Below are positions 8,198 through 16,315 of a stretch of DNA of 64,000 bases, piece after piece. Both the position numbers and the translations under genes were made by a program. The DNA is from Escherichia coli (lineage in GTDB: Bacteria > Pseudomonadota > Gammaproteobacteria > Enterobacterales > Enterobacteriaceae). The stretch is from the NCBI RefSeq assembly GCF_029227855.1, contig NZ_CP074356.1; one strand, given 5' to 3'. The notes below the pieces were generated by a model. It ran no database searches, was not told the origin of the DNA, and saw nothing but the letters and a program-made list of their open reading frames with translations. The stretch's first letter is position 1. The number at the start of each line of letters is the position of its first letter.

Positions 8198-8917
8198 ATG
8201 ATGCGCAAAATGCTGCTGGCGGCAGCACTTTCAGTGACGGCAATGACCGCTCACGCCGACTACCAGTGCAGCGTCACGCCGCGTGACGATGTGATTGTCA
8301 GCCCGCAAACCGTGCAGGTGAAGGGCGAAAACGGCAATCTGGTGATCACGCCAGACGGCAACGTGATGTATAACGGTAAGCAATATTCCCTGAACGCCGC
8401 CCAGCGCGAGCAGGCGAAGGATTATCAGGCTGAACTGCGTAGCACCCTGCCGTGGATTGATGAAGGCGCGAAAAGCCGCGTCGAGAAAGCCCGTATTGCG
8501 CTGGATAAAATTATCGTTCAGGAGATGGGCGAAAGCAGCAAAATGCGCAGCCGTCTGACCAAACTTGATGCGCAGCTGAAAGAGCAGATGAACCGCATTA
8601 TCGAAACGCGCAGCGATGGCCTGACGTTTCACTATAAAGCCATTGATCAGGTTCGCGCCGAAGGCCAGCAATTAGTGAATCAGGCAATGGGCGGAATTTT
8701 ACAGGACAGCATTAATGAAATGGGCGCGAAAGCGGTGCTGAAAAGCGGTGGTAACCCATTACAGAATGTGCTGGGAAGCCTGGGCGGTCTGCAATCCTCA
8801 ATCCAAACCGAATGGAAAAAGCAGGAAAAAGATTTCCAGCAGTTTGGCAAAGATGTTTGTAGCCGCGTTGTGACTCTGGAAGATAGTCGCAAAGCCCTGG
8901 TCGGGAATTTAAAATAA
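8198..8917 (+). CDS. yggN: DUF2884 periplasmic protein YggN
   Basis: 239-aa ORF with signal peptide MMRKMLLAAALSVTAMTAHADYQCSV... Confidence 0.88.
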   Translation: MMRKMLLAAALSVTAMTAHADYQCSVTPRDDVIVSPQTVQVKGENGNLVITPDGNVMYNGKQYSLNAAQREQAKDYQAELRSTLPWIDEGAKSRVEKARIALDKIIVQEMGESSKMRSRLTKLDAQLKEQMNRIIETRSDGLTFHYKAIDQVRAEGQQLVNQAMGGILQDSINEMGAKAVLKSGGNPLQNVLGSLGGLQSSIQTEWKKQEKDFQQFGKDVCSRVVTLEDSRKALVGNLK

Positions 8918-8956: not shown

Positions 8957-9672
8957 TTAATTGTGCACAGAAAACCCCCAGCTAGGCTGGGGGTTCCGGA
9001 AAGCTTTCAGCTTTGAGCCAGTTATTAAAACCCCTTTTGATTTGTTAAAACACTTTGCGGTCTGGCAACTGCAAGTGTCAAACAAGAAATCAAAAGGGGG
9101 TCCCAATGGGGAACGAAAAGAGCTTAGCGCACACCCGATGGAACTGTAAATATCACATAGTTTTTGCGCCAAAATACCGAAGACAGGTGTTCTACAGAGA
9201 GAAGCGTAGAGCAATAGGCAGTATTTTGAGAAAGCTGTGTGAGTGGAAAAGCGTACGGATTCTGGAAGCTGAATGCTGTGCAGATCATATCCATATGCTT
9301 GTGGAGATCCCGCCCAAAATGAGCGTATCCGGGTTTATGGGATATCTGAAAGGGAAAAGCAGTCTGATGCTTTACGAGCAGTTTGGTGATTTGAAATTCA
9401 AATACAGGAACAGGGAGTTCTGGTGCAGAGGGTACTACGTCGATACAGTGGGTAAGAACACGGCGAAGATACAGGATTACATAAAGCACCAGCTTGAAGA
9501 GGATAAAATGGGAGAGCAGTTATCGATTCCCTATCCGGGCAGCCCGTTTACGGGCCGTAAGTAACGAAGTTGGATGCAAATGTCAGATCGTGTGCGCCTG
9601 TTAGGGCGCGGCTGGTAAGAGAGCCTTATAGGCGCATTTGAAAAACCTCCGGCTATGCCGGAGGATATTTAT
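8957..9672 (+). mobile_element. IS200 insertion sequence (IS200/IS605 family), about 0.7 kb; ends approximate
   Basis: Contains a 152-aa Y1 transposase essentially identical to IS200 TnpA as I recall it. Left-end terminator hairpin cccccagc-tag-gctggggg (about 8973-8993), long-range pairing ccccttttg/caaaagggg that would occlude the tnpA RBS, and right-end hairpin cctccggc-tat-gccggagg (about 9647-9665). Confidence 0.8.
9106..9564 (+). CDS. tnpA: IS200 transposase TnpA (HuH Y1 tyrosine transposase, 152 aa)
   Basis: ORF 9055..9564; protein from MGNEKSLAHTRWNCKYHIVFAPKYRRQVFY...HIHMLVEIPPK...YIKHQLEED matches IS200 TnpA (HuH motif HIH). Confidence 0.9.
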   Translation: MGNEKSLAHTRWNCKYHIVFAPKYRRQVFYREKRRAIGSILRKLCEWKSVRILEAECCADHIHMLVEIPPKMSVSGFMGYLKGKSSLMLYEQFGDLKFKYRNREFWCRGYYVDTVGKNTAKIQDYIKHQLEEDKMGEQLSIPYPGSPFTGRK

Positions 9673-9803: not shown

Positions 9804-10850
9804 ATGGAGTTTTTCAAAAAGACGGCACTTGCCGCACTGGTTATGGGTTTTAGTGGTGCAGCATTGGCATTACCCAATATCACCATTTTAGCAACCGGCG
9901 GGACCATTGCCGGTGGTGGTGACTCCGCAACCAAATCTAACTACACAGCGGGTAAAGTTGGCGTAGAAAATCTGGTTAATGCGGTGCCGCAACTGAAGGA
10001 CATTGCGAACGTTAAAGGCGAGCAGGTAGTGAATATCGGCTCCCAGGACATGAACGATAATGTCTGGCTGACACTGGCGAAAAAAATTAACACCGACTGC
10101 GATAAAACCGACGGCTTCGTCATTACCCACGGTACCGACACGATGGAAGAAACCGCTTACTTCCTCGACCTGACGGTGAAATGCGACAAACCGGTGGTGA
10201 TGGTCGGCGCAATGCGCCCGTCCACGTCCATGAGCGCAGACGGTCCATTCAACCTGTATAACGCGGTAGTGACCGCAGCTGATAAAGCCTCTGCTAATCG
10301 TGGCGTGCTGGTGGTGATGAACGACACCGTACTGGACGGTCGCGATGTCACCAAAACCAACACCACCGACGTAGCGACCTTCAAGTCTGTTAACTACGGT
10401 CCTCTGGGTTACATTCACAACGGTAAGATTGACTACCAACGTACCCCGGCACGTAAGCATACCAGCGACACGCCGTTCGATGTCTCTAAGCTGAATGAAC
10501 TGCCGAAAGTCGGCATTGTTTATAACTACGCTAACGCATCCGATCTTCCGGCTAAAGCACTGGTAGATGCGGGCTATGATGGCATTGTTAGCGCTGGTGT
10601 GGGTAACGGCAACCTGTATAAAACCGTATTTGACACTCTGGCGACCGCCGCGAAAAACGGCACTGCAGTCGTGCGTTCTTCCCGCGTACCGACGGGCGCT
10701 ACCACTCAGGATGCTGAAGTGGATGATGCGAAATACGGCTTCGTCGCCTCTGGCACGCTGAACCCGCAAAAAGCGCGCGTTCTGCTGCAGCTTGCTCTGA
10801 CGCAAACCAAAGATCCGCAGCAGATCCAGCAGATCTTCAATCAGTACTAA
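9804..10850 (+). CDS. ansB: L-asparaginase 2 (periplasmic, 348 aa)
   Basis: MEFFKKTALAALVMGFSGAALALPNITILATGGTIAGGG...; the TGGTIAG asparaginase motif. Confidence 0.93.
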   Translation: MEFFKKTALAALVMGFSGAALALPNITILATGGTIAGGGDSATKSNYTAGKVGVENLVNAVPQLKDIANVKGEQVVNIGSQDMNDNVWLTLAKKINTDCDKTDGFVITHGTDTMEETAYFLDLTVKCDKPVVMVGAMRPSTSMSADGPFNLYNAVVTAADKASANRGVLVVMNDTVLDGRDVTKTNTTDVATFKSVNYGPLGYIHNGKIDYQRTPARKHTSDTPFDVSKLNELPKVGIVYNYANASDLPAKALVDAGYDGIVSAGVGNGNLYKTVFDTLATAAKNGTAVVRSSRVPTGATTQDAEVDDAKYGFVASGTLNPQKARVLLQLALTQTKDPQQIQQIFNQY

Positions 10851-10965: not shown

Positions 10966-11973
10966 GTGAAAAAGCAATGGATTGTTGGCACGGCGCTGCT
11001 TATGTTGATGACTGGTAATGTCTGGGCAGATGGCGAACCGCCAACTGAAAATATTTTAAAAGATCAATTCAAAAAGCAGTATCACGGCATTCTCAAGCTT
11101 GATGCCATCACCTTAAAAAATCTTGATGCTAAGGGTAATCAGGCCACCTGGTCAGCGGAAGGCGATGTCTCTTCCAGTGACGATCTCTATACCTGGGTCG
11201 GTCAGTTGGCAGATTACGAACTGCTCGAACAGACCTGGACGAAAGATAAACCGGTAAAATTCTCGGCGATGTTAACCAGTAAAGGAACGCCCGCGTCTGG
11301 CTGGTCGGTGAACTTTTACTCTTTTCAGGCGGTAGCCAGCGATCGTGGGCGGGTGGTCGACGATATCAAAACGAATAATAAATATCTGATCGTGAATAGC
11401 GAAGATTTCAATTATCGCTTTAGTCAGCTTGAGTCTGCGTTGAATAACCAGAAGAACTCGATTCCTGCGCTGGAAAAGGAAGTGAAAGCGCTTGATAAGC
11501 AAATGGTGGCGGCGCAGAAAGCAGCGGATGCATATTGGGGAAAAGATGCAAACGGTAAGCAAATGACCCGCGAAGACGCCTTTAAAAAAATTCACCAACA
11601 GCGTGATGAGTTTAATAAACAGAACGATAGCGAGGCTTTCGCGGTTAAATATGACAAAGAGGTTTATCAACCGGCGATTGTGGCATGTCATAAACAGAGT
11701 GCAGAGTGTTATGAAGTGCCAATTCAGCAGAAGCGAGATTTCGATATCAACGAACAACGGCGACAGACTTTTCTGCAATCACAAAAACTTAGCCGTAAAT
11801 TGCAGGATGACTGGATAACGCTCGAAAAAGGGCAATATCCGTTAACGATGAAAGTTTCAGAAATAAACAGTAAAAAAGTCGCGATTTTGATGAAAATTGA
11901 TGATATCAACCAGGCTAATGAACGCTGGAAAAAAGATACCGAACAATTGCGGCGCAATGGAGTGATTAAGTAA
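10966..11973 (+). CDS. yggM: DUF1202 periplasmic protein YggM (GTG start)
   Basis: 335-aa ORF MKKQWIVGTALLMLMTGNVWADGEPP... starting at gtg. Confidence 0.85.
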   Translation: MKKQWIVGTALLMLMTGNVWADGEPPTENILKDQFKKQYHGILKLDAITLKNLDAKGNQATWSAEGDVSSSDDLYTWVGQLADYELLEQTWTKDKPVKFSAMLTSKGTPASGWSVNFYSFQAVASDRGRVVDDIKTNNKYLIVNSEDFNYRFSQLESALNNQKNSIPALEKEVKALDKQMVAAQKAADAYWGKDANGKQMTREDAFKKIHQQRDEFNKQNDSEAFAVKYDKEVYQPAIVACHKQSAECYEVPIQQKRDFDINEQRRQTFLQSQKLSRKLQDDWITLEKGQYPLTMKVSEINSKKVAILMKIDDINQANERWKKDTEQLRRNGVIK

Positions 11974-11989
11974 CTCATGTTAAGTACCT

Positions 11990-12030
11990 TTGCCGGATAA
12001 TATAAAAAGTTATCCGGCAAATTATTTTTT
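11990..12030. terminator. Bidirectional terminator between convergent yggM and TRAP permease gene
   Basis: tgccggataa-tataaaaag-ttatccggca followed by attatttttt. Confidence 0.6.
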
Positions 12031-13330
12031 ACATTAGCCCTAGTAGCTGTGGAATGAACAAGGATATTTGCGGGATGTAAGTGATCATCATCAACGCGAT
12101 TAACAATGCGGCATAAAATGGCAGCAATGGTTTGATCAAATGTTGAATCTTCACACCTGAAATAGAACAACCAACAAATAGCGCACTACCCACCGGCGGT
12201 GTTAACAGCCCAATACAAAGGTTGGCCACCATCATAATACCGAAATGTACCGGATCCATTCCCAGCTCTTGTGCAATCGGCAAGAAGATTGGTGTGAAGA
12301 TTAGTACAGCCGGTGTCATGTCCATAAAGATGCCGACAATTAATAAGACGATATTAATCAGCAGCAATATGATCAGTGGGTTATCAGAAATCCCCATCAA
12401 CGCGTCGCTGATCATATAAGGAATATCAGCATTGGTCATTGACCAGGACATGCCCACGGAAAAACCGATCAACAGTAATACAATCGAAGTGGTAACAACC
12501 GATTCCAGAATCAGTTTGGGTAAATCGCGCCATTTTACTTCCCGGTAAATCAGCACCGAGAGAATAAATGTGTAGACAACGGCAATCGCAGACGCTTCAG
12601 TTGCGGTAAAAATGCCGCCCAGAATGCCGCCCATTACAATGAACACCAGAAGCAAACTTGGTAAGGCATCCAGAAACGCTTTACAGGCCTGAGCAAAGGT
12701 TGCTCTTTCTGAAAGTGGGTAGCCACGGCGTTTAGCAATAATGCCGCAGACTATCATTACCGCAAGACCCATTAAGATCCCTGGCAAATATCCCGCCATA
12801 AATAGCGATGCTACAGAAACGCCGCCAGCTGTCAGGGAAAACACAATTAACACGTTTGAGGGCGGTATCAGTAATCCAGTAATACAGGATGAGACGTTTA
12901 CAGCGGTAGAAAATGCCGGATCATAACCTTGTTTGGTCTGAATGGGATTCAGTGTGCCACCAACGGCAGCAGCTGCCGCAACGGCTGAACCAGAAATGGA
13001 ACCAAACATCATATTCGCCAGGACGTTCACATGACCAAGTGAACTAGGAACCCGACCAACCATTACCTGGGCGAGGTTAATCAAACGTATCGCAATACCG
13101 CCGCTGTTCATCAGCGTTCCGGCAAAGATGAAAAAGGGGATTGCCAATAGGGCAAAGTTATCCAGTCCATTAGCCAGTCGCTGCGAAACAGTGATTGCCG
13201 CGATATCCCAGGGAAACATCAACAGCATTGAAGCTACAGTGGCAATACCGATTGAGAACGAAATGGGCACACCAATAAAGACCAGCACAAAAAAACAGCC
13301 AAATAGTGTAAGCGCAATATAACTATCCAT
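12029..13330 (-). CDS. TRAP transporter large permease subunit (DctM family, 433 aa)
   Basis: Highly hydrophobic 433-aa ORF, MDSYIALTLFGCFFVLVFIGVPISFSIGIATVASMLLMFPWD...; typical DctM architecture. Start overlaps the stop of the upstream small permease. Confidence 0.85.
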   Translation of the reverse strand: MDSYIALTLFGCFFVLVFIGVPISFSIGIATVASMLLMFPWDIAAITVSQRLANGLDNFALLAIPFFIFAGTLMNSGGIAIRLINLAQVMVGRVPSSLGHVNVLANMMFGSISGSAVAAAAAVGGTLNPIQTKQGYDPAFSTAVNVSSCITGLLIPPSNVLIVFSLTAGGVSVASLFMAGYLPGILMGLAVMIVCGIIAKRRGYPLSERATFAQACKAFLDALPSLLLVFIVMGGILGGIFTATEASAIAVVYTFILSVLIYREVKWRDLPKLILESVVTTSIVLLLIGFSVGMSWSMTNADIPYMISDALMGISDNPLIILLLINIVLLIVGIFMDMTPAVLIFTPIFLPIAQELGMDPVHFGIMMVANLCIGLLTPPVGSALFVGCSISGVKIQHLIKPLLPFYAALLIALMMITYIPQISLFIPQLLGLM

Positions 13331-13842
13331 TAACTGGCCTCCTGCGCAGGTTGTTTCAGTTGTTGAATGCTTTGATTAATAAAACACAAGGCATAAAACA
13401 TCATCACCACTCCACTTAATGGCAGAATGATATATACGTATCCCATCGGTATTTGCATCGCGGCAGATACTTGTGATGTTGCCAGCGTTTTATCAATTAA
13501 TTTCAGGCCACCAGTCACAATGACCGAACCGGCAAAACCTAAAATGAGAATGTTAATGACTATACTAAGAAGTAATTGCTTGCGCTTATTCAGGGCGAGA
13601 GCAAATAAATCGATAGAGAGATGTCTCTGCGCGCCGACGGTATATGCAGCACCTAATAATCCTACCCAGATCATCAAAAAGCGTGCCAGCTCATCGGTTA
13701 ATGTACTTGGCTGGTTAAGTACGTAGCGGCTAAATACTTGCCAGACTACGCATACAACCAGAGCAAGCATTACGGCGACAGAAAACGCGGCAATGACGCG
13801 GTCTACCGCAAGTTTCAGGCGGTTAAATATCATTGTAAGCAT
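13330..13842 (-). CDS. TRAP transporter small permease subunit (DctQ family, 170 aa)
   Basis: 170-aa four-TM protein MLTMIFNRLKLAVDRVIAAFSVAVMLALVVCVVWQVFSRYVLNQPSTLTDELARF..., between the SBP and the large permease. Confidence 0.8.
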   Translation of the reverse strand: MLTMIFNRLKLAVDRVIAAFSVAVMLALVVCVVWQVFSRYVLNQPSTLTDELARFLMIWVGLLGAAYTVGAQRHLSIDLFALALNKRKQLLLSIVINILILGFAGSVIVTGGLKLIDKTLATSQVSAAMQIPMGYVYIILPLSGVVMMFYALCFINQSIQQLKQPAQEAS

Positions 13843-13877
13843 CCTGGAAAATCAGGGCCAGAGACTGGCCCGAAATA

Positions 13878-14864
13878 TTATTGAGCAGCGTTGTCGAATT
13901 TCTCTAACAAAGCAGCTTGTTTTGGATCTTTTTTGAAGTCGTCAAACAGAGGTTGAACTGCGGCACGGAATGGGGCTTTATCAACCTTAACGATTTCACC
14001 ACCCATAGCTTTCGCTTGAGCACGTGTGTCAGCGTCAATTTTTTCCCACAATTTTTGTTGATAAGCTTCGGATTTCTTCGCCGCTGTTTCGAGGATTTGT
14101 TGCTGTTCTGGGGTTAATTTATTCCATGTTTTGGTGGAGATAACCAAAAAGTCAGGAATTGAGGCATGTTCATCTTCAGAAAAGACTTTGGCAATTTCGA
14201 TATGTCGAGTCTGCACCCAGGAAGGCACGTTATTTTCTGCGCCATCTACTACACCTTGCTGCATCGCAGTATAAACTTCGCCAAATGAAATTGGAGTGGG
14301 TGAGCCACCCATCAGTTCAATCATTTTGATGGTGGTCGGGCTTGGCTGAACACGAATTTTCAGCCCTTTAAGATCTTCTGGCTTAGTAATCGGTTTTTTC
14401 GCATAGAAACTGCGTGTACCCGCTACATAAGCTGATAAAGCAAAAAAGCCTTTATCTTTTGTTGAATCCATAATTTCTTTACCAACTTCACCAAAAACCA
14501 CTTTGTTGAAGTGCGCCTGATCTTTAAATAAGAACGGCAAATTATAGATAGCATAAATATTATCAAAAGACTCCAGATCACTGGCGGAACCTTTGGTCAT
14601 ATCCAGTGCACCATTTTGCAACAACTCCATAGTTTCTCGCGCATTACCCATCTGGCTGCTGGGGTAAATACGGATCACCATATTACCTTTTGACAGCTGT
14701 TTTACTTCTTTCGCCAGCTTTTCAAAACTCTGATGTACAACATGACTTCTTTCCAGGTTGTGTGCTAACTTTAACGTCACTTTTTCTGCGGCGTTTACGC
14801 CAGTGCTAACCAGAGCCAGCAAGGATGCGCAGACTAATGAGCGGGTAAATGACCTCATTTTCAT
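13878..14864 (-). CDS. TRAP transporter periplasmic substrate-binding protein (DctP family, 328 aa)
   Basis: Signal peptide MKMRSFTRSLVCASLLALVSTGVNA, DctP-family fold; a conserved Arg (AGTRSFY) is consistent with carboxylate binding. Substrate unknown. Confidence 0.85.
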   Translation of the reverse strand: MKMRSFTRSLVCASLLALVSTGVNAAEKVTLKLAHNLERSHVVHQSFEKLAKEVKQLSKGNMVIRIYPSSQMGNARETMELLQNGALDMTKGSASDLESFDNIYAIYNLPFLFKDQAHFNKVVFGEVGKEIMDSTKDKGFFALSAYVAGTRSFYAKKPITKPEDLKGLKIRVQPSPTTIKMIELMGGSPTPISFGEVYTAMQQGVVDGAENNVPSWVQTRHIEIAKVFSEDEHASIPDFLVISTKTWNKLTPEQQQILETAAKKSEAYQQKLWEKIDADTRAQAKAMGGEIVKVDKAPFRAAVQPLFDDFKKDPKQAALLEKFDNAAQ

Positions 14865-15178
14865 AAAAAAACTCCCTGTTGAAGAATGGAAATTGGTTGA
14901 TATCTAATTGTGCTTATCAGTGCTTTGTGCGACAAATTGGTTAACCTGTCTGACAACTTGTCTATGTTTATCACAACTTGAAATAAAGTCAGAAATTAAA
15001 TATTAATTTTGTGCGCCAGGTTGTACATGTTTATAATCAATAAATGATGAGTAAATATTCAGTAAATATATATAATAAATATCGTCGATATTTATTCAGT
15101 AAGAAATATATTTTTGCCGAAGTTAATTAACGGGGGGGTTAAAAGAAGTGATTAATGCGCCCGCAGGCGCATTAATGA
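14865..15178 (-). promoter_or_regulatory. AT-rich promoter/operator region of the TRAP operon, with direct repeats and a 10-bp-arm palindrome at the hemW 3-prime end
   Basis: Very AT-rich by eye; repeated TATTCAGTAA (about 15054 and 15089) and ACAACTTG (about 14957 and 14979); palindrome attaatgcgc-ccgcag-gcgcattaat at about 15152-15177. Confidence 0.45.
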
Positions 15179-16315
15179 TTACTCAGCGAGGAATAATTCA
15201 AGAAGTGAGTTTAAGAATAATTTACCATGCTTGGTTATCTGCCAGTAATCCGCACATTCTGTGAGATAACCTTGAGCGATAGCCTCGTCTAACTGAGAGC
15301 GAATAACTTCTTCAGAAAGGCCAGTATATTGGCTAAACTCCACGCGCGGCGCGGCCTCAAGCAGACGGAAGCGATTCATAAAGAACTCAAACGGTTTATC
15401 TGCAGCTTCGACATCACGCTGGCTTTCCAGATATCTTCCCTGCATAAAACCACGCGGATGACGCGTTTTGGTGGTACGCAGAATGCGACCATCCGGGAAG
15501 GTGACTTTGCCGTGCGCGCCGCAGCCAATACCAATGTAGTCGCCAAATCGCCAGTAGTTGAGATTGTGCTGGCACTGATAACCTGGTTTGGCGTAAGCGG
15601 ATGTTTCATACTGCTGATAGCCCGCTGCGGTTAATAACTGATGCCCCTGTTCGAATATATCCCACAACGCATCGTCGTCCGGCAGCACCGGCGGGCGAGA
15701 GCCAAACAGCGTATTAGGTTCGATGGTCAGTTGATACCAGGAAAGATGCGGCGGATTCAGTTCAATAGCCTGGCGCAGATCGCCTAGCGCCTCTTCCAGT
15801 GATTGATCCGGCAGCCCATGCATCAAATCAAGGTTAAAGCTACGTAACCCTAAACCGCTCGCCAGCTTTGCCGCTCGTTTCGCTTCTTGCGGGCCATGAA
15901 TGCGCCCAAGTCGTTTCAGCTTTTCTTCGCTAAAACTCTGCACACCAATAGAGATGCGGTTCACACCAGCACGCTGATAATCGACAAAGCGATCGGCTTC
16001 AACCGTACCAGGGTTCGCTTCCATAGTAATTTCTGCATCCGCTGCCAGCGGCAAACGCGCACGCACGCCGTCCAGCAGCGTTTGCATCGCCGGGCCGGAA
16101 AGCAGGCTCGGCGTACCACCGCCAATAAAGATTGTCTGCACTTCACGGCCCTGAGCGTAAGCCACGTCGTTGTCCAGATCGTTAAGCAGATGCTGAACAT
16201 AATCGTCGTGCGGCACTTCTCCTTTCAACGCGTGAGAGTTGAAATCGCAGTACGGGCATTTCTGCACGCACCACGGGATGTGAATGTAGAGACTCAGCGG
16301 CGGTAATTTAACCAT
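15179..16315 (-). CDS. hemW: Radical-SAM heme chaperone HemW (YggW, 378 aa)
   Basis: [28 protein letters not shown]... CxxxCxxC radical-SAM motif. Confidence 0.92.

Follow-up and report, generated by a model that had tools for sequence, protein, structure and literature searches.

A candidate hexuronate TRAP transporter operon between yggM and hemW of Escherichia coli: predicted ExuR/UxuR operators and signs of an old locus lost from most strains

In a minority of Escherichia coli strains, the chromosomal interval between hemW and yggM is occupied by a three-gene operon, dctPQM, which we describe here from a 64,000-nucleotide stretch of contig NZ_CP074356.1 (RefSeq assembly GCF_029227855.1; hereafter the window). 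In the window, ansB (9804-10850) and yggM (10966-11973) lie on the plus strand and are followed on the minus strand by dctM, dctQ, dctP, hemW (15179-16315), rdgB, yggU, yggT and yggS. [quoted passage not shown] The dctP gene (13878-14864, minus strand) codes for a periplasmic substrate-binding protein of 328 amino acids (Pfam DctP, E 1e-84; TIGR00787, 286 bits against a cut-off of 175), the signal peptide of which ends, by inspection, after VNA, with AEKV following. The small membrane subunit, dctQ (13330-13833, minus strand), has 167 amino acids (Pfam DctQ, PF04290, E 1.5e-30), and the large permease, dctM (12029-13330, minus strand), has 433 (TIGR00786, 467 bits against a cut-off of 268). 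The longest open reading frame (ORF) at dctQ spans 13330-13842 and would give 170 amino acids; RefSeq (504 nucleotides in other strains) and the orthologues use the 167-residue form. The translational overlap suspected between dctQ and dctM is real and amounts to a single base, 13330, common to the stop of the one and the start of the other. All three genes read as intact, co-oriented ORFs on the minus strand, free of frameshifts or premature stops, and their lengths equal those of the orthologues in Salmonella, Kluyvera and Klebsiella and of the RefSeq annotations of other E. coli; by that comparison all three are full length. A Shine-Dalgarno sequence, AGGGAG (14872-14877, minus strand), was found by inspection 7 nucleotides before the dctP ATG. 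The operon has no regulator gene of its own and its RefSeq annotation is generic only. Its kind of transporter is known, the system itself being an uncharacterised paralogue; our literature search found no paper on this binding protein or operon. It most likely encodes a functional TRAP uptake system. The reading that we favor, and hold to be rather probable on the evidence of sequence, is that this system imports hexuronates (D-galacturonate and/or D-glucuronate), that it is controlled in trans by ExuR and UxuR, and that its locus is an old one lost from most E. coli.

The preliminary description had held that the substrate could not be inferred, a view that is not borne out once the DNA upstream of dctP and the surroundings of its homologues are taken together. 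For the former, two palindromic matrices differing in half-site spacing were built from ten K-12 sites, namely those at uxuA (two), uxuR, uidA (two), exuT, uxaC, uxaB (two) and exuR. The UxuR-type matrix (8+2+8) has its top match in the entire window at 14934-14951 (AAATTGGTTAACCTGTCT; 20.9 bits, against 10.7 bits for the runner-up), a score reached by none of 3000 shuffles of the spacer. The ExuR-type matrix (8+3+8) likewise has its top match in the window at 14942-14960 (TAACCTGTCTGACAACTTG; 18.9 bits, against 14.5 bits for the runner-up), a score reached by one of the 3000 shuffles; the core of this site, TGTCTGACA (14947-14955), is referred to below as box 1. The two putative operators overlap by 10 bp and precede the dctP start codon by 70-96 bp. 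When the known K-12 sites are scored by leave-one-out, nearly all of them come out no higher than these two, and no match of at least 15 bits occurs in roughly 205 kb of other E. coli DNA (118 kb and 86 kb). Moreover, the 13-mer GGTTAACCAATTT occurs unchanged in both the UxuR-type site and the uxuA promoter of K-12, and the site agrees at 13 of 18 positions with AAATTGGTATACCAATTT, a published functional UxuR site with which the 8+2+8 matrix also agrees (PMC8092373). From position -120 to -1, carriers from phylogroups D, B2 and B1 differ by a single substitution near -20, the operator boxes being identical among them, whereas the distal part of the spacer varies. On these grounds the operon probably belongs to the ExuR/UxuR regulon and is regulated in trans.

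Possible traces of this arrangement can be followed beyond E. coli. A second TGT-N3-ACA core, box 2 (TGTGCGACA, or TGTCGCACA on the gene strand; 14926-14934), lies 21 bp from box 1 and overlaps a weak -35-like element, TTGTCG. Two such boxes, 21 bp apart, can be read by eye at the same position in Salmonella, Kluyvera, Klebsiella and Leclercia. The core TGTCTGACA itself stands near -97 in Salmonella, Kluyvera and Leclercia; the Klebsiella version, TGTACGACA, differs from it at two positions. An isolated half-site, AAATTGGT (ACCAATTT on the gene strand; 14890-14897; direct repeat D4), precedes the start codon by 26 bp and forms part of a block, GATATCAACCAAT, shared with Salmonella. Upstream of the boxes, the sequence TGTGA-N6-TAGAC (gene strand, 14960-14975), noticed by eye, might speculatively and with low confidence be taken for a CRP half-site; its TGTGA is kept in four of five other genera. 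Several observations must be set against the predicted control by ExuR and UxuR. The K-12 training sites were picked by eye and from knowledge of the regulon, and the TGT-N3-ACA core is common to many GntR regulators of the FadR subfamily. The UxuR-type palindrome between the boxes is confined to E. coli and is not conserved in the other genera, where the orthologous promoters score 5.5-14.6 bits, lower than in E. coli. Finally, the gene strand of the spacer contains no sigma-70 match of at least 9 out of 12; a promoter made up of TTGTCG (-35, 14930-14935) and CACAAT (-10, 14907-14912), with 8 of 12 matches, is speculative.

The weakness of this promoter also raises the question of whether the operon could be a cryptic or poorly expressed remnant, its genes intact and its E. 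coli promoter decayed, which we regard as unlikely. Apart from the poor sigma-70 match, such decay would fit the replacement in E. coli of a -10-like element, GATAAT, that stands between the boxes in Kluyvera, Klebsiella and Leclercia, and it would fit the loss of the operon from most strains. It would also fit a GC content at third codon positions (GC3) of 0.39-0.48 in the E. coli copy as opposed to 0.51-0.68 in that of Salmonella (window 12029-14864 against L002 8001-10839). However, the operon is under strong purifying selection, with a ratio of nonsynonymous to synonymous substitution rates (dN/dS) of 0.01-0.18 within E. coli and intact genes in all lineages examined; against Salmonella the ratio is 0.02-0.05 for dctP and dctQ and is not computable for dctM, where dS is saturated. 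Across phylogroups the region of the operators and the ribosome-binding site hardly changes, in contrast to the variable distal spacer, and weak, activator-dependent promoters are usual for catabolite-controlled sugar-acid genes.

Further support for a hexuronate transporter comes from gene context. Homologue clusters were taken from a protein library built at 50% identity, and even the nearest are only 50-54% identical to dctP. Three of the four nearest clusters with readable context adjoin hexuronate genes. In P0122 (53%), a gene for an ExuR-like regulator (50% identical to ExuR and 39% to UxuR) is followed by dctPQM, uxaA, a UxaB-like gene and uxaC; ExuR-type sites lie in the spacer, and the 12-mer AGTTGTCAGACA is common to the dctP spacer of the window and the exuR-dctP spacer of the P0122 locus (L018). 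P0124 (52%) lies beside a GntR regulator and uxuA and has UxuR-type sites of 25.0 and 23.2 bits; the same matrices find strong sites beside the P0122 and the P0124 genes. P0123 (52%) overlaps a gene of the mannitol-dehydrogenase family (UxuB/UxaB). The enterobacterial orthologues, at the loci of Salmonella, Kluyvera, Klebsiella, Leclercia and Buttiauxella, have no uxa or uxu neighbors. Given the operators upstream of dctP and the linkage of homologue clusters to exuR/uxaABC or uxuA, a substrate of the hexuronate class is therefore a reasonable inference.

The binding protein allows this prediction to be examined from the side of the ligand. Its AlphaFold model, made from 126 diverse sequences (predicted local distance difference test score 94.9), retrieves TRAP binding proteins as its top PDB matches in Foldseek at root-mean-square deviations of 1.2-1.5 Å, and these are broadly the same set as the closest PDB entries by sequence: 4ovr, 4n15/4n17, 4ln5, 4mhf/4mij, 4x8r, 4n91, 4n8y and 4xfe (E 1e-58 to 4e-68). 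For most of these entries the ligands are presumptive, as reportedly assigned in the screen of Vetting et al. (2015). Two are documented: 4N91 (Apre_1383) is a D-glucuronate binder and 4MHF (Bpro_3107) binds both glucuronate and galacturonate (PMC7660916). Classified in this way against characterised TRAP binding proteins, a step that the preliminary description had advised, dctP falls nearest a group that includes documented hexuronate binders. The solved members of that group (Bamb_6123, 4N15/4LN5; Xanthobacter, 4OVR; Bpro_3107, 4MHF/4MIJ; Apre_1383, 4N91) are its best matches in sequence and fold, and they share with it an Arg-Arg-Asn triad that binds the carboxylate and the sugar. In known glucuronate binders this triad is Arg150-Arg170-Asn210 (PMC7660916), to which R151, R171 and N211 correspond with matching spacing. 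Arg151, Arg171, Asn211 and Asp238 are conserved, the two arginines being invariant in an alignment of the 126 family sequences. The carboxylate-binding arginine that had been thought to be retained is indeed there, as R171, which aligns with Arg170 of the Salmonella glucuronate binder STM3169.

The same comparison speaks against a transporter for C4-dicarboxylates (DctPQM), sialic acid (SiaPQM) or 2,3-diketo-L-gulonate (YiaMNO), a reading suggested by the generic DctP and DctM family names that we consider very improbable. In the PDB sequence search, C4-dicarboxylate DctP (about E 1e-33) and SiaP (about E 1e-40) are far weaker matches, falling short of the hexuronate group by 25-35 orders of magnitude. 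YiaMNO, the sole TRAP system of K-12, has the same three-component architecture, but it lies at another locus and the window operon falls far short of its NCBIfam equivalog cut-offs (38 against 260 for YiaM and 294 against 800 for YiaN). The operators and the homologue contexts, as set out above, point to hexuronates instead.

Within the sugar acids the choice of ligand is less secure, and here too some of the evidence counts against a hexuronate. Identity to the solved hexuronate binders, which come from distant phyla and differ from dctP in their N-terminal contacts and GSE loop, is only 30-38%, and it is 46% to the STM3169-type glucuronate binder. Of the seven ligand-contact positions of STM3169 five are kept, including Asn35 and Asp237 (N36 and D238 in dctP), and two differ, Gln36 being replaced by Leu37 and Glu74 by Ala75; the glucuronate-specific set of Asn35, Gln36, Glu74 and Asp237 is in consequence incomplete. 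A GNARE motif also stands in place of GSE(K/R)(D/E). With two contact positions altered, another sugar acid could be the ligand, and it is possible, if on the unlikely side, that the same transporter under the same regulon carries neither glucuronate nor galacturonate but an intermediate of a related pathway or some other sugar acid, such as fructuronate, tagaturonate, an aldonate (for example L-galactonate, mannonate) or a uronate that is unsaturated or comes from the host. Leu37 and Ala75-Arg76 depart from the glucuronate-specific signature, the loop variant "x-R-E", in which the Glu is missing, is common only to the nearest clusters P0121 and P0122, and UxuR also controls GntP, a fructuronate transporter according to the K-12 annotation. 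Yet P0122, which has the variant motif, clusters with uxaA, uxaB and uxaC, a complete galacturonate route, and the best relatives of solved structure all belong to the group with documented hexuronate binders. Bpro_3107, which binds both hexuronates, also uses alternative contact residues (PMC7660916). The unusual loop that dctP shares with P0122 mildly favors galacturonate. A bolder version of events, which we regard as doubtful, would join pocket and promoter: in the E. coli lineage an ancestral, ExuR-controlled promoter would have been remodelled, GATAAT between its two boxes giving way to a UxuR-type palindrome over the ExuR box, so that a strain-variable, high-affinity transporter came under dual control, and the altered pocket (Leu37, Ala75-Arg76) could serve a uronate other than the classical two, perhaps a keto- or host glycosaminoglycan-derived one, giving the sequence type (ST) 131, ST38 and O103 and O111 enterohaemorrhagic E. 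coli carriers a niche advantage over K-12-like strains.

The relation of dctP to STM3169 deserves to be set out with some care. STM3169 binds D-glucuronate with a dissociation constant of about 0.2 uM (PMC7660916). The STM3169-STM3171 system of Salmonella Typhimurium, a D-glucuronate TRAP transporter (Herman et al., 2020; PMC7660916), resembles the window operon in being a DctP/Q/M transporter of Enterobacteriaceae; both are absent from K-12 and belong to the sugar-acid branch of binding proteins. Arg150, Arg170, Asn210, Asp237 and Asn35 of STM3169 correspond to R151, R171, N211, D238 and N36 of dctP. Published primers yield N- and C-terminal peptides of STM3169 (PMC3022708), and these do not match the hemW-linked proteins, which excludes the hemW-linked Salmonella protein as STM3169. 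Nor did a match by mass succeed: the query and the Salmonella orthologues P0005, P0006 and P0008 deviate from the 35,741.96 Da of STM3169 by 250-540 Da, and where a few other cluster proteins approach it to 1.5 Da, the cut sites are arbitrary. A scan of genome contigs for two DNA patterns taken from the primers did not retrieve the STM3169 locus of LT2, and a PDB search with the STM3169 peptide fragments gave no match. A counterpart was nevertheless recognized in a second accessory TRAP cluster of E. coli EC958, between ygiQ and ftsP (L024 11750-19223), a region that has been named GR 21 (PMC12928451). There, dctPQM accompanies genes for a GntR regulator, a mannitol-dehydrogenase-family protein, a Zn-dependent alcohol dehydrogenase and an Ldh-family oxidoreductase. 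The binding protein of this cluster has Asn35, Gln36, Glu74, Arg150, Arg170, Asn210 and Asp237 at the published STM3169 positions, and its C-terminus matches; by sequence it is therefore the STM3169 orthologue, and the cluster that of STM3169-71. At 46% identity to this protein, the dctP of the window is therefore, as judged by sequence, a paralogue of the STM3169 type and not an orthologue. The two E. coli operons differ in position, and the window operon lacks an adjacent GntR regulator or dehydrogenase genes. The promoter motifs differ as well, the ygiQ-ftsP TRAP promoter having repeated TTGGTCTA motifs unlike ExuR/UxuR sites and no strong sites for the ExuR or UxuR matrix. The strain from which the window derives has no ygiQ-ftsP island, the two genes lying 110 bp apart (L013).

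Taken as a hexuronate transporter, the system would work as follows. In the periplasm, the secreted DctP-family protein would bind a sugar acid that bears a carboxylate, D-galacturonate and/or D-glucuronate being the likeliest, and would hand it to the DctQ-DctM membrane pair for import driven by an ion gradient. Through the ExuR-type and UxuR-type operators, transcription would be repressed when hexuronates are absent and induced by their presence. A hairpin between dctP and dctQ, described below, would probably raise the ratio of binding protein to membrane subunits. We infer a physiological role as a high-affinity scavenger alongside ExuT, the K-12 transporter of the major facilitator superfamily, with which dctPQM would share its predicted substrates, predicted repressors and operator types. 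In contrast to ExuT, dctPQM belongs to another class of transporter, depends on a binding protein, presumably has a higher affinity, and is accessory and not core. For E. coli in the gut and the urinary tract, hexuronates are an important source of carbon, supplied by mucus, by the diet and by the turnover of glucuronides, and the paralogous STM3169 of Salmonella is a documented virulence-associated glucuronate binder. If our reading is correct, the operon would be a new predicted member of the ExuR/UxuR regulon, and a second sugar-acid TRAP system in the major pathogenic lineages ST131, ST38, O103 and O111, absent from K-12, would represent a strain-specific trait for nutrient scavenging.

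The accessory status of the operon in E. coli, suspected from the start, is confirmed by its distribution. With a carrier defined by an operon match over at least 80% of the query, 1461 of 5426 complete E. coli genomes (27%) have it at the hemW-yggM site; the copy is single and chromosomal in nearly every case. As anticipated, K-12 has no transporter between the two genes, the hemW-yggM spacer measuring 154 bp in MG1655; in another operon-free E. coli it measures 68 bp. The window locus, the only part compared, is 100% identical to that of strain MRSN346647, which is listed as ST38 (PMC8454413). The operon is 99.0% identical in EC958 (ST131) and 97.8% identical in O103 and O111:H8 strains. We take ST38 to belong to phylogroup D, EC958 to B2 and the O103 and O111:H8 strains to B1, so that carriers are not confined to one phylogroup. 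Plasmid carriage was considered and dismissed, two high-identity plasmid matches being a mislabelled chromosome and one 103-kb record. As a separate observation, E. coli GF124.3 (L014 4002-4373) contains a 335-bp fragment of dctQ, 99% identical, as a pseudogene beside an fhuD fragment and IS66, far from the hemW locus.

The low GC of the operon had been taken to suggest horizontal acquisition. The GC content of the operon is indeed lower than that of most flanking genes (0.42-0.46 as opposed to 0.52-0.55 for hemW, rdgB and ansB), but the core gene yggM, at 0.44, is equally poor in GC, and the inference of acquisition does not hold up. As in the window, the operon lies directly downstream of hemW in Salmonella enterica, Kluyvera and Klebsiella variicola; Leclercia and Buttiauxella have it elsewhere. 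Across Enterobacteriaceae, orthologues of the binding protein show 84-90% identity. Nucleotide identity between E. coli and Salmonella is 73-80% for dctPQM, 79-83% for neighboring core genes and 70% for yggM, and among E. coli lineages the divergence of the operon parallels that of its flanks. No integrase, insertion sequence (IS), mobility gene, tRNA or direct repeat was found at its borders. With the same site occupied in other genera, no mobility genes, divergence like that of the flanks and dN/dS of 0.01-0.18, the absence from K-12 is therefore better read as loss, and the evidence of sequence points to an ancestral enterobacterial locus that was repeatedly lost and not recently acquired, being absent from roughly 73% of sequenced E. 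coli as well as from K-12. For Salmonella LT2, Herman et al. (2020; PMC7660916) list just three TRAP systems, none of them the hemW-linked operon, which suggests that among Salmonella strains, too, some have the locus and others lack it.

A recently acquired horizontal island that entered some E. coli lineages from outside is, in our estimation, improbable, even though several features could be cited for it: the GC and GC3 values below those of the flanking genes, the presence in only 27% of genomes, a dS from Salmonella that exceeds that of the flanks, and a mosaic 3' end of hemW in one lineage. An island of this kind is difficult to reconcile with an operon found at the same site in four genera, with borders devoid of integrase, IS, tRNA or direct repeats, with carriers in phylogroups D, B2 and B1 whose divergence tracks the flanks, with the lack of genuine plasmid carriage and with a core gene as GC-poor as yggM. 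Within the species, spread by homologous recombination across the flanks is possible, though this would not be foreign acquisition. The ancestral reading has its own difficulty in the saturated dS from Salmonella, above that of the flanks, and the much lower GC3, both despite identical synteny. These leave some room for a more complicated history, such as allele replacement by recombination, if not for a foreign island. The mosaic lies in O103 strain RM8385, where the last ~280 bp of hemW (L016 3747-4036 against window 15179-15464) are 90.8% identical, while the operon is 97-98% identical between the same lineages; this suggests a recombination breakpoint at the operon-hemW junction. Low GC and absence from K-12 need not mean acquisition, and here they would instead mark an old locus in the course of being lost.

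At the yggM end of the operon, a 13-pair hairpin (11989-12021; stem TTGCCGGAT/ATCCGGCAA) separates the stop codons of yggM and dctM. The preliminary description had called it a bidirectional terminator, which stands in part: a T-run follows the stem on the plus strand only, and by sequence it is a good predicted terminator for yggM, while the dctM direction has no T-run. The same stem follows yggM in operon-carrying and empty-site genomes with different loops (window 11989-12021 against L001 2590-2630), the loop at the empty site resembling a repetitive extragenic palindromic element, and this shared-stem hairpin may mark the deletion boundary. Between dctP and dctQ, a GC-rich hairpin (GGGCCAG-UCU-CUGGCCC; 13855-13871, minus strand) appears terminator-like in the hairpin scan, and its stem is kept and lengthened in Salmonella, Kluyvera and Klebsiella, making it conserved in four genera. 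It is probably a partial terminator or a stabilizer of mRNA that would raise the binding protein over the membrane subunits.

At the other end, the AT-rich region of about 300 bp said to abut the hemW stop proves to be a dctP-hemW spacer of 314 bp (14865-15178; GC 0.35-0.38). It includes the hemW terminator hairpin, ATTAATGCGCC/GGCGCATTAAT (15151-15176, minus strand), which is also found 3' of Salmonella hemW. The distal, AT-rich part of the spacer (14990-15150), which differs among E. coli lineages, contains TATTCAGTAA in two exact copies, 37 bp apart, as well as an inverted repeat that is perfect over 11 bp, AATAAATATCG/CGATATTTATT (15074-15096; repeats within window 15056-15102). A search elsewhere in the genome for a regulator with a motif matching the upstream repeats had been advised. 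The repeats are real and regulators can be named, ExuR and UxuR, but the predicted operators lie at the other sites described above; the distal repeats vary between lineages, without conservation in the most divergent E. coli lineage, and they were therefore not treated as an operator. An Rfam search returned a chance sub-threshold match only, and PADLOC found nothing. Elsewhere in the window, between yggN (8198-8917) and ansB (from 9804), an ORF at 9055-9564 on the plus strand codes for a transposase of the IS200/IS605 family (NCBIfam IS200 equivalog, E 2.6e-43); the yggN-ansB spacer measures 886 bp here and 175 bp in K-12, a difference consistent with the insertion of an IS200 element of ~0.7 kb.

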